From the NCBI GenBank assembly GCA_000002445.1, contig CP000067.1, forward strand, positions 992,001 through 1,056,000: DNA of 64,000 nucleotides. Reading direction: 5' to 3'. The stretch comes from Trypanosoma brucei. Its lineage: Eukaryota. This document shows positions 41,815 to 45,054 of this stretch, one piece after another. The notes beneath the pieces were generated by a model, which did no database searches, had not been told where the DNA came from, and saw nothing but the letters and a program-made list of their open reading frames with translations. Each line of letters starts with the position of its first letter. The first letter of the stretch is position 1. Both the position numbers and the translations under genes were made by a program.

Positions 41815-44800
41815 CTACATCTCATGAACCGATTCCTCCACTTGCTGGCCGACATGCCGCCTTCCCGTTGTGTCACACACACGGACTAGCTCAGAAGAGA
41901 TGTAATTCATGCTTCCACAAGTGTTTGAACCGGCACTGCACTGGATTCGTTGATATGTTGTAGGATCATACCTTGTAACGGCGTTCAACACATCCAATTC
42001 TGACACAACTGCTAGAACGTACTTGTGATATTCACCCTCTGTATAATTGGTGTAGTGAAGCGCATCCATAAGACCTGGAGAGCCGAAAGTGATCGTTTGC
42101 GTGTGAGATTCGACCCCGGCCAGTGAGGCGATGCCGCCCGCGATGCCCCATGCGGTGAGTACAATTTCATTGGAAGTTGTATTCTTCATCTCTGTCAGGT
42201 AACGTACGACCTCATCTTTGACATCATACCACGTAAAGTCAATAGCCCTCGTCAAAAATGAAAGAAGGAACGCCACCTGCTTCAACCAGTTGTTTGGAAG
42301 AAGGATTTGAAGTGGTGCAAGGGCAATGTAACCGATCCACACGGTCATTGTAATGATCGATGAGTAAACACGCCCGTTCTGCAGGGTTAACACAGTAACA
42401 TTCCTTGCTAAAGAGTCAAATCGGGATATGGACCATTGTTCATTTCTCTCGCCATATACTTTGACCGTGTTGTTGTACACCACGTCTGTACTTCCGAACC
42501 AGTTGTCAAAATCTTCATGGAACACATTTTCCTTTGACGCTCCGGAAACCTCAGTAAGCAGAGCGAAATCAACGATACCAAACCCCCCTGCGGTGCGCAA
42601 AGTGCAGATGGGATATTGATGGTATTCTTCTAATGGGTCACGGGGTCCGGAGGCATTAACGGGAGGTAGGCTATGTGGCACCCAATACTGCCATTTAGCA
42701 CCCAACCAACCCAGCAAAACGCACGAGAGGGCAAGCATAGCGAGTGCACCATAGAAAATGAAGGTTCCACCGATATTGCGCGACCGGCGGCGAACGCAGA
42801 AAATGCCCATCCCACTGTGTATTAGAAGCACTAAGGAAATGACACCCACCGTCGATCCAACGAGGAAGAAGCTGGCGGTACAGCTGGTTATGAGGAGGAT
42901 GACGAACAGAAAGAGCAAACCGCGCAGCGTTTTCTTTGCGCTTCTTTTCCTCAAACAAAACACAGCTAAGCTTATGAACACCACGTTTACCGCTGCTACC
43001 GTGCATACTGAGACAATCCATGGGCCATCATACTGCAGGAATCTGAAGGAGAAGCAGAGGTACAGCCACAACATACACGCAAAAGCCACCGTACTGCGAA
43101 GCACTGAACGACTCGACATCGAGGAGCGCCCCAGTGAACAGTAGTCTATCGTCAGGATGGCTGCGACGGTAGCGATGCATGTAGCCACTGCAAATGGGAT
43201 CATTCCACTAATGATAAATGCAATACCCAGTAGAAAATCCAGTGTGATTGGCACGGCGCAAGCAATTGTGGTAGAAAGCCTGCGCGTGAGAACGGCCTCC
43301 GTCTTTTCCTCACTCTCTTGCACGTCCAACAGCAGGTACAGGGCTAACATGGAACCCTGATTTTTCTTCCGCCTTTGCTCGCCCATCGGTATCCAATCAA
43401 AAAAAAGCACAATATGGCACAACGCTAGAAATGCCACAGCAAACAGCCACCCAGTAGCAAACGTCACCTGAATACTTCTCAACAAGGAGCTGTGCGTCAT
43501 GGAGTATCCGAAGGAAAACATCTGTAGAAATATCATCGAACAAAATAATATGAGCTGCGCCACACTGCCGCGTGTTTTCCCCAACATGTCCAGTGGTGGG
43601 ACGACTTTGTGTTTCATGATCACCACAAGAACGGTAACTGCACGTGAGCACAACGCAGTGCCTTGGAACGTCACCAAAATCAGTGTTGCGAATAATGCAT
43701 ACACATAGTTCCATTCAATGAAGAACGCTAAGAACACCGTCACGGCTGCACTGGAAGTTAGTGCCATGAAGAAAAGGAGCGCCACTAAGAAGGAGAGGCT
43801 ACTGGCGACATTAACAACGATGAGTACACCGTGATAGAGTTCCCGAAGGGACTCTGGGATGAATCGGTACCACTTTTTGTTCGAAAGGTCAAGCATCGGT
43901 AGTTCATCGAACTCGCGTTTCCACGCTGCCGCATAATCGTCCATCAGAGCACAGCGCATTTCACCCTCCTCCGCCGACACGGCAACGCGCCAGCGATACA
44001 ATTCCTCGAGGAAAAACAATGACAAATTGTTAGGTAGCGGTTTCATGAGCAAACACCATTCATTTTCCTCTTCTTCCAGAGGAGGTGAAATATCATTATC
44101 ATGTCTCCACATGCCATTGAGGTTCCCTTCTACTGGAGTGGCTGTTAAACTTGAGCCAAATGTCAGCAGCGATACCATCGACTCCGTTTCCGAGGCTAAG
44201 GACGGGTGACGTACCGGAACGTTGGGCTGCTCAATGCATTGCAGCTCCCACTCCTTCACCGTCAACCCACGCTCTGAGATAGCAGCCTTCATTCCATGGT
44301 AGTAATCTTCAATAATGTCCCCGTGACGGTCCCAATGCTCCTGGTTATCACAATCATTCGTGCCACCGAGTTGTACAGGGAGAACACTTTCATCAATAAA
44401 CTCCAAAAGCCTACCGGATGCTCGATCGCTTTTGGAGAAAAACATAATACTATCAGAGAAAGCTGATGGGAGCTGCGAGAACAAAGGCTTCGCCACAGAA
44501 CAAAGCATTCGGCCCATGTTGCAGATATATACTTTGCTAATACATCCAGGGAAAAATTTTGATATGCGCAACGCCACATCTGCCTGTAACGACATATCCA
44601 CGTTGCTCCACATGCTTGCATCCTCGTAGTTTACGAGCAGCACCATTTGGCACCGTTTGTTATCCGCTCGCAGTCGTGTCCCGTAACTCACCATCAGATC
44701 AAACGTATGTTTCTTCCCATCACGATGACTCGCCGCTTTCTTGTCCCGGTTCACTGTAACGTAAAAGATGGTGCGACCACACTTGTCTTCTCCAATCACC

Positions 44801-45054
44801 TGTATAATGCCCAACCTCAGTGATGTTCGCATGTACTCCGTGAATTCATACTTGGCCATCTCATTTACCTCCATCGCAAAGCGCCGTTGCAACTTCGCAA
44901 CAGTTTCCTTGACATCGAACTTTTTATTCTCCAGAAATCCATATATCCAACAATCCAATTCATCCCTCTTGATGTCTAGTTCTCTCTTCACTTCCTCCAA
45001 CTCCTGTCGGTGAGACACCGCCACGGGACCAAGTTCCTGTAGAAAAGAGGACAT
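41815..45054 (-). CDS. Multidomain membrane protein of 1079 aa: Sec14/CRAL-TRIO-like N-terminal domain, about 10 TM helices, and a class-3 (fungal-type) lipase-like C-terminal domain
   Basis: The N-terminal 250 aa or so have a CRAL-TRIO-like layout. The central region has many hydrophobic helices. The C-terminal region resembles lipase_3 (…LTAWGIAGGIASLAG…ITFGSPGL…), but the GHSLGG nucleophile position reads GIAGG, with no serine. Confidence 0.65.
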   Translation of the reverse strand: MSSFLQELGPVAVSHRQELEEVKRELDIKRDELDCWIYGFLENKKFDVKETVAKLQRRFAMEVNEMAKYEFTEYMRTSLRLGIIQVIGEDKCGRTIFYVTVNRDKKAASHRDGKKHTFDLMVSYGTRLRADNKRCQMVLLVNYEDASMWSNVDMSLQADVALRISKFFPGCISKVYICNMGRMLCSVAKPLFSQLPSAFSDSIMFFSKSDRASGRLLEFIDESVLPVQLGGTNDCDNQEHWDRHGDIIEDYYHGMKAAISERGLTVKEWELQCIEQPNVPVRHPSLASETESMVSLLTFGSSLTATPVEGNLNGMWRHDNDISPPLEEEENEWCLLMKPLPNNLSLFFLEELYRWRVAVSAEEGEMRCALMDDYAAAWKREFDELPMLDLSNKKWYRFIPESLRELYHGVLIVVNVASSLSFLVALLFFMALTSSAAVTVFLAFFIEWNYVYALFATLILVTFQGTALCSRAVTVLVVIMKHKVVPPLDMLGKTRGSVAQLILFCSMIFLQMFSFGYSMTHSSLLRSIQVTFATGWLFAVAFLALCHIVLFFDWIPMGEQRRKKNQGSMLALYLLLDVQESEEKTEAVLTRRLSTTIACAVPITLDFLLGIAFIISGMIPFAVATCIATVAAILTIDYCSLGRSSMSSRSVLRSTVAFACMLWLYLCFSFRFLQYDGPWIVSVCTVAAVNVVFISLAVFCLRKRSAKKTLRGLLFLFVILLITSCTASFFLVGSTVGVISLVLLIHSGMGIFCVRRRSRNIGGTFIFYGALAMLALSCVLLGWLGAKWQYWVPHSLPPVNASGPRDPLEEYHQYPICTLRTAGGFGIVDFALLTEVSGASKENVFHEDFDNWFGSTDVVYNNTVKVYGERNEQWSISRFDSLARNVTVLTLQNGRVYSSIITMTVWIGYIALAPLQILLPNNWLKQVAFLLSFLTRAIDFTWYDVKDEVVRYLTEMKNTTSNEIVLTAWGIAGGIASLAGVESHTQTITFGSPGLMDALHYTNYTEGEYHKYVLAVVSELDVLNAVTRYDPTTYQRIQCSAGSNTCGSMNYISSELVRVCDTTGRRHVGQQVEESVHEM

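Follow-up and report, generated by a model that had tools for sequence, protein, structure and literature searches.

Architecture of the protein

The stretch of Trypanosoma brucei DNA analysed here, referred to below as the window, comprises 64,000 nucleotides of contig CP000067.1 (positions 992,001 to 1,056,000, assembly GCA_000002445.1) and carries on its minus strand a complete open reading frame (ORF) whose product, the query of all comparisons that follow, can be described with high confidence as a kinetoplastid-specific integral membrane protein of three modules. These are an N-terminal DUF7353 and CRAL_TRIO (Sec14-type) unit, a core with 11 transmembrane (TM) helices, and a C-terminal domain with the fold of class-3 lipases (Table 1). 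The ORF is almost certainly Tb927.4.3920, because it is flanked by a kinesin ORF and an amino-acid transporter ORF, matching Tb927.4.3910 and Tb927.4.3930, which papers name as kinesin-13 and an amino-acid transporter. Its product is identical over its whole length (100% identity, 100% coverage) to P0001, annotated as 'CRAL/TRIO domain containing protein, putative [Trypanosoma equiperdum]'.

Table 1. Features of the Sec14–lipase-fold gene and of its surroundings, in window coordinates
Feature	Position	Strand	Remarks
ORF	41815..45054	minus	complete, uninterrupted; 1079 aa + stop codon
DUF7353, N-terminal helical module	44860..45039	minus	aa 6-65; Pfam E 9.3e-32, 109 bits
CRAL_TRIO / Sec14-type lipid-binding domain	44362..44811	minus	aa 82-231; Pfam PF00650
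Linker	43855..44361	minus	aa 232-400; conserved helical Sec14 extension, then variable region, pre-membrane helices
Membrane core	42688..43854	minus	aa 401-789
Class-3-lipase-fold (alpha/beta hydrolase) domain	41818..42672	minus	aa 795-1079
Cys817	42604..42606	minus	96% conserved; putative disulfide partner of C-terminal cysteine cluster
N-glycosylation sequon N885-V-T	42394..42402	minus	kept in 36/47 family members
Degenerate nucleophile elbow AWGIAGG	42133..42153	minus	aa 968-974; aligned to GHSLGGG of Ser-retaining relatives
FGSPGL motif	42070..42087	minus	aa 990-995, after strand beta6
Thr1027, candidate lost catalytic acid	41974..41976	minus	loop after beta7
Cysteine cluster C1039-x6-C1046-x13-C1060	41875..41940	minus	all three invariant
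Tandem ORFs (three)	15267-18965, 20428-24126, 25589-29293	minus	1232-1234 aa; spacing 5161 bp
DEAD/Helicase_C ORF	31046-34327	minus	1093 aa
Orphan ORF	35107-36309	minus	400 aa; TTG start; between DEAD-box helicase and kinesin
Calpain-like ORF	48745-51123	minus	792 aa; DUF1935 + Peptidase_C2
Calpain-like ORF	53964-56525	minus	853 aa; DUF1935 + Peptidase_C2
Low-G+C intergenic stretches	52001-54000, 58001-62000		G+C 0.33-0.35

At the N terminus, DUF7353 always precedes this subtype of CRAL_TRIO and is found in every family member scanned; in the searches made here it was seen only in kinetoplastid-type proteins. An earlier sequence-only reading of this DNA, whose observation proves real and whose interpretation is on the whole supported, had placed a CRAL-TRIO/Sec14-like region in this part of the protein, and the Pfam profile confirms it, PF00650 matching residues 82-231 with E 5.5e-12 and 46.2 bits against a cutoff of 22.6, over profile positions 4-153 of 153. 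The domain likewise lies above the gathering threshold in all relatives scanned. It is nonetheless divergent, because phmmer finds no PDB chain matching it at E<=10. With Sec14/CRAL-TRIO proteins such as yeast Sec14p it has in common an end-to-end profile match above the Pfam cutoff and a predicted cytosolic location, but it differs from them in following DUF7353 and in its covalent link to the 11-TM core and, beyond it, the lipase-fold ectodomain. Among Sec14 proteins, the known multidomain ones, with GOLD, nodulin, RhoGAP/GEF or PH partners, are soluble or peripheral. The linker that follows contains the point, equivalent to query residue 274, at which the soluble paralog P0101 (described below) ends.

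Beyond the linker, hydropathy analysis reveals a dense hydrophobic block at residues 406-788 and no hydrophobic segment N-terminal of residue 406. The expectation of at least eight hydrophobic helices is exceeded in an AlphaFold2 model of residues 385-800 built with 25 homologues (pLDDT 80.1, pTM 0.79), which contains 11 long helices, predicted to span the membrane at residues 401-445, 450-480, 493-521, 524-551, 588-616, 619-640, 646-672, 677-702, 707-731, 734-753 and 761-789. The loop between core helices at residues 554-590 is disordered and predicted to be cytosolic. No significant sequence-profile or whole-domain structural match links the core to a known family, to a transporter or enzyme, or to a solved fold, and no relatives of it were detectable outside the protein's own family. 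In alignment A2, conservation reaches 90% or more at four residues in or near core helices, R471, H547, R711 and H746. Such conserved polar and charged positions, in so large a core, are what might be expected if the core's main function were to act on a non-lipid substrate as transporter, channel or enzyme, with the ectodomain serving a structural, folding or protein-interaction role and the Sec14 domain regulating or targeting the whole. This explanation is possible but doubtful, as two of the three modules come from lipid-handling families and their fusion is conserved family-wide, while the core matches no known transporter fold and hence no substrate can be proposed from it.

A lipase fold recognized through relatives

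The resemblance of the C-terminal domain to Lipase_3, noted in the sequence-only reading, is borne out by homologues, by profile and by fold, and not by the query alone. Searched as a full protein against Pfam, NCBIfam and PDB sequences, the query has no lipase match (for Lipase_3, nothing at E<=10), and its isolated C-terminal domain reaches 13.6 bits (E 0.062) with PF01764, below the 22-bit gathering threshold. The relationship becomes visible only via homologues, the family profile and the structure model. Two full-length relatives with an architecture identical to the query's exceed the Lipase_3 cutoff, namely P0035 (28.3 bits), which is 29% identical across 98% of the query, and P0076 (31.4 bits), which a C-terminal profile from the query's family matches at 6e-62; a Lipase_3 match at E<=1 occurs in 8 of 28 family members. 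Run against the PDB, the domain profile places PAD4, Thermomyces lanuginosus lipase (TLL), diacylglycerol lipase and SAG101 on top (E ~1e-4), and in this alignment the family's 'GhglaGg' sits on 'GHSxGG'. When a Ser-retaining homologue is compared with the PDB by phmmer, the alignment is confined to the elbow region. The structure prediction, in turn, has a strand-elbow-helix in which WGIAGG lies right at the strand end (domain residues 169-175). Because the relatives that pass the Lipase_3 cutoff, the PDB profile matches and the predicted placement of the elbow all agree, descent of the domain from class-3 lipases, with an alpha/beta-hydrolase fold of their type, is established.

The subthreshold score of the query itself might also be taken to mean that the ORF is an artefact, whether pseudogene, assembly chimera or chance C-terminal resemblance, an idea of negligible probability that the present analysis has already refuted. 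The C-terminal domain is not decaying: its identity to orthologues (64, 47, 50 and 44%) is as high as, or higher than, the figures for the TM core and for the protein as a whole. Two motifs of the elbow region, G-x-G-[IV]-A-G-G and F-[GAS]-S-P-G-L, persist within the orthologue clade, and the F and P of the latter (F196 and P199 in domain numbering) are nearly invariant, at least 90% conserved in the family. The protein terminates some 20 residues past the lipase-fold domain.

EDS1 joins PAD4 and SAG101 among the top structural matches to the domain. All three act via protein and small-molecule interactions and not by lipolysis, so that their presence here lends something to the view that the core handles a non-lipid substrate. 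The trypanosome domain is like them in fold and in pseudo-enzyme fate, which is not to say orthologous. EDS1, PAD4 and SAG101 form soluble heterodimers in the nucleus and cytoplasm, have a C-terminal EP (EDS1-PAD4) domain and bind ribosylated nucleotides, whereas the trypanosome domain is membrane-anchored and apparently extracytoplasmic, and its protein has no Pfam match to an EP domain.

Loss of the nucleophile and probable loss of catalysis

Loss of the nucleophile Ser from the query is firm. The sequence-only reading had proposed that WGIAGG stands where GHSLGG would be expected, and Gly970 does occupy the nucleophile position, Ser-retaining relatives aligning in the same column. Gly is found there in 21/21 members of the orthologue clade, from Trypanosoma to Leishmania, and across 63 domain-carrying members the column holds Gly in 45, Ser in 10, Arg in 3, Asp in 2, Asn in 2 and Ala in 1. 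Among the elbows that keep Ser, P0035 and P0076 read GHSLGG, P0029 reads GHSMGG, P0075 and P0078 read GHSFGG, the T. theileri paralog P0040 reads GHSLPG, and P0042, P0044, P0046 and P0048 begin GYS. These members are spread over at least four separate clades of a rough neighbour-joining tree that is midpoint-rooted and has no support values, and their spread implies that Ser was ancestral and has repeatedly been lost. That the nucleophile has repeatedly been replaced by residues as varied as G, R, D, N and A suggests that chemistry at this site is dispensable, a further consideration on the side of a non-lipid function for the core.

Two of the replacements are unusual in kind. P0034 and P0038, from Bodo saltans and a relative, have Asp at the nucleophile (GHD[LI]AGG), and three other members have Arg (G[ST]R[LI]TGG). 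Lipase elbows usually decay to Gly or Ala, and the Asp and Arg versions could reflect a changed ligand or chemistry as opposed to simple inactivation.

Assignments for the remaining catalytic residues are provisional. In the column of Thr1027, Asp or Glu is present in 8/10 Ser-retaining members versus 23% of those lacking Ser, and this joint loss suggests that the column once held the catalytic acid. The HMMER alignment to PAD4 instead sets the Asp of IHDLVP on query D1021, in a column that is mostly Gly or Ser. A global hhalign comparison of the family profile with the Thermomyces lipase, made to place Asp201 and His258, was rejected because its probability was 12.6% and its register shifts against the predicted strands. 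For the catalytic His, spacing from the last conserved Cys (His258 of TLL lies 10 residues before Cys268) points to Asn1050, where most members have D, E, Q or N; no conserved catalytic His and no His-rich column were found, even among the Ser-retaining members.

A hydrolase acting through some non-canonical nucleophile would have to draw on a Ser elsewhere near the elbow. Trypanosoma orthologues do have one a few residues past it (Ser977 of the query, in GGIAS), and T. cruzi-type orthologues have one immediately before the nucleophile position (GSGVAGG), yet conservation of neither extends through the orthologue clade: in Leptomonas-type members the sequence is ATGVAGGFLGAAAA, and in the query it is AWG. 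The candidate acid is lost as well, no conserved His was found, and in the model the downstream Ser lies within the post-elbow helix (H177-189) and not at the apex of the strand-turn-helix. With no candidate Ser conserved among orthologues, an alternative nucleophile near the elbow was rejected, and residual hydrolase activity of this sort is most improbable. It is very likely, then, that the C-terminal domain is catalytically dead.

Compared with class-3 lipases (PF01764; Thermomyces lanuginosus 1DT3, Rhizomucor miehei, feruloyl esterase A, plant PLA1), the trypanosome domain differs in the exchange of Ser for Gly and of the candidate acid for Thr, in having no identifiable catalytic His, in falling below the Pfam cutoff, and in being anchored to a polytopic core instead of secreted. 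The protein is thus a member of the CRAL_TRIO family, and of the Lipase_3 superfamily by descent and fold, yet not a lipase.

Topology of the two soluble domains

For a positive-inside analysis of 25 sequences, loops were assigned from the 11 modelled helices. Lys plus Arg averaged 16.9 on the loops of the N-terminal side versus 3.3 on the opposite side, with the same sign in 25/25 sequences, and by the positive-inside rule this bias gives an N-in/C-out orientation. The C-terminal domain contains four cysteines that are at least 96% conserved (C817, C1039, C1046 and C1060) and five N-x-S/T sequons, versus one sequon in the 384-residue N-terminal part; such sequons and conserved cysteines are typically found where a domain is luminal or extracellular. 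Fungal class-3 lipases are secreted, disulfide-bonded proteins with a disulfide joining the N-terminal to the C-terminal region, Cys22-Cys268 in the Thermomyces lipase. By analogy, the positions of C817 and C1060 match that disulfide, and C817 may pair with the C-terminal cysteine cluster. The C-terminal domain is probably glycosylated and disulfide-bonded. On the strength of the charge bias, the cysteines and the sequons together, it is likely that the Sec14 domain is cytosolic and that the dead-lipase domain is located in an organelle lumen or outside the cell.

Jackson 2007 reported that the gene encodes a domain for lipid binding together with 12 transmembrane helices, a number that would set both soluble domains on one side of the membrane. 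The sequence-only reading had suggested a lipid sensor or transfer protein of membrane contact sites, and on that model the protein would be anchored in the membrane with both lipid-related domains in the cytosol. The first core helix, 45 residues long and very hydrophobic, makes an extra span conceivable and could in principle be a hairpin, and this possibility, like the reported 12 helices, weighs against the N-in/C-out arrangement. A twelfth span, however, would misplace one or the other of two elements, the K/R-rich loops or the Sec14 domain, with respect to the membrane, and the conserved cysteines and the sequons, one of them widely kept, are typically extracytoplasmic traits. A 12-helix protein with both domains cytosolic was accordingly rejected as the main model and kept as a rival, though an improbable one.

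Family, paralogs and evolution

Hosts lack the family, which ranges from free-living prokinetoplastids to Leishmania and Trypanosoma, and the Sec14–TM–lipase-fold fusion is conserved across all of it. Kinetoplastids also possess soluble DUF7353-CRAL_TRIO paralogs that are like the query in their N-terminal module and unlike it in having neither TM helices nor lipase-like domain, and which amount to natural 'Sec14-only' versions. They include the short P0101 and P0102, and the DUF7353 and CRAL_TRIO pair also stands without the other modules in proteins of 343-650 residues from Bodo, Phytomonas, Angomonas and T. cruzi. A soluble clade of about 900-1000 residues, including LMJF_31_0360, is 41-47% identical to the query over its first ~25%; its proteins lack hydrophobic helices, and neither the TM profile nor the C-terminal profile matches them.

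P0101 (280 residues, T. equiperdum) is 74% identical to query residues 2-274 and stops there, having lost both the TM helices and the lipase-like domain; it is probably Tb927.8.8340, and T. brucei thus also carries a truncated Sec14-only paralog. Jackson 2007 attributed the truncated copy to a T. brucei-specific chromosome 4/8 duplication. A 71%-identical equivalent of P0101 exists in T. congolense (P0102, 284 residues), so that the truncated copy may predate that duplication.

A second clade of full-length paralogs occurs in stercorarian-type trypanosomes (P0036, P0037, P0040 and P0031, from T. cruzi, T. conorhini, T. theileri and T. grayi), and its members adjoin the orthologue in T. conorhini (Tco025E_01243/01244) and T. 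theileri (TM35_000411260/411270). The catalytic Ser is present only in the T. theileri copy (GHS), those of T. cruzi, T. conorhini and T. grayi reading GHG or GYG. Searches returned no member of this clade from T. brucei, T. congolense or T. vivax, and no copy stands in tandem in the window; the second paralog may have been lost from African trypanosomes. The 1093-residue ORF of the window was considered as a tandem paralog by comparison with T. conorhini and T. theileri, and was rejected as an unrelated DEAD/Helicase_C protein. One further member, P0045 (1385 residues, EukProt), has Pfam matches to CCCH zinc fingers (PF00642, PF18044, PF25585) N-terminal to its DUF7353-CRAL_TRIO-TM-lipase-like body, which could be a gene-model fusion or a genuine added domain.

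Genomic neighbourhood

All ORFs of at least 250 residues in the window lie on the minus strand, which fits a single trypanosomatid polycistronic unit. Nine were identified: RPB2, an RsmB-type methyltransferase, a receptor-type adenylate cyclase, a DEAD-box helicase, the 400-residue orphan, the kinesin, the amino-acid transporter and two calpain-like proteins. The cyclase is the ORF at 25589-29293, the one of the tandem triplet that was scanned, and combines two periplasmic-binding-protein-like domains with Guanylate_cyc, as in receptor-type adenylate cyclases of a GRESAG4-type array; the near-identical sizes and regular spacing of the triplet suggest a recent triplication. No Pfam match at E<=0.001 was found for the 400-residue ORF, which could be an orphan trypanosome gene or have its true start elsewhere. 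One of the two calpain-like proteins may be the cytoskeletal CAP5.5, by its position on chromosome 4. The low-G+C stretches, set in a region where coding sequence has a G+C of about 0.47-0.52, may be long untranslated or intergenic parts of the polycistron, and in block 58001-62000 GC skew and AT skew are both positive.

A possible function in lipid handling

How the three modules might work together can be sketched only tentatively. Conservation of the ectodomain is no lower than that of the other parts of the protein, which favours its retention as a binding or recognition module, and after losing lipid hydrolysis it might bind a ligand of lipid or acyl type. This module could be coupled by the membrane core to the cytosolic Sec14 domain, as a conduit or a conformational relay, and the Sec14 domain would extract, present or sense lipid at the cytosolic leaflet, with the net effect that lipid is sensed or relayed across the bilayer. 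In NPC1-type proteins an extracytoplasmic lipid-binding domain is attached to a core of several spans, through which lipid is passed in the direction of the cytosol, and the two layouts are similar in concept, as a functional analogy only. Ser-retaining relatives, from free-living kinetoplastids and as some Trypanosoma paralogs, may represent an ancestral form whose ectodomain still cleaved its substrate. A bolder and rather doubtful version is a trans-bilayer 'capture, translocate, hand-off' lipid machine of a class not recognised before, specific to kinetoplastids and made of a single polypeptide, in which the ectodomain would capture a lipid from the lumen or the exterior, the structurally novel 11-TM core would move or signal it across the membrane, and the Sec14 domain would take it up on the cytosolic side. 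The ectodomain of this machine would have been catalytic in ancestral forms and would serve trypanosomatids purely as a receptor, and the host would have nothing equivalent to the system.

Several points weigh against a lipid relay or sensor. That the CRAL_TRIO domain binds lipid is presumed from the family to which it belongs, the absence of a conserved His even from Ser-retaining members makes the step of an ancestrally active lipase uncertain, and literature searches, which led to Jackson 2007 alone, turned up no data on the function or localisation of any member. As a mechanism, then, the relay or sensor is a tentative proposal, and the explanation taken as a whole, from architecture through to lipid sensing or relay across the bilayer, stands a little above even chances.

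The gene, with its lipid-binding domain and TM helices, was noted in 2007. A 2023 review of Leishmania lipid-transfer proteins lists Sec14 homologues and mentions no TM segments or lipase-like domain. Literature searches on Sec14/CRAL-TRIO with lipase or transmembrane in trypanosomatids, and on the gene identifiers, returned nothing functional, and nothing that was found describes the orphan core, the placement of the soluble domains on opposite sides, or the lipase-fold domain and its status as a pseudo-enzyme. The combination of a Sec14 domain with a lipase-fold pseudo-enzyme is an unprecedented, lineage-specific architecture.

What the protein offers is a pair of lipid-related domains, probably on opposite membrane faces, joined by a core of no known fold and absent from hosts, and its relevance is both to parasite lipid biology and to the evolution of pseudo-enzymes. 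Trypanosomatids scavenge and remodel host lipids, and few of their membrane proteins for lipid handling are known. Versions with and without the Ser exist side by side, in some cases in species that are close relatives, and so provide a natural series for the transition from enzyme to pseudo-enzyme. A trans-bilayer relay, if wrong, would still leave a well-defined orphan family of membrane proteins that merits a structure; if true, it would represent a lipid transporter or sensor of a new type, and with it a target specific to the parasite.

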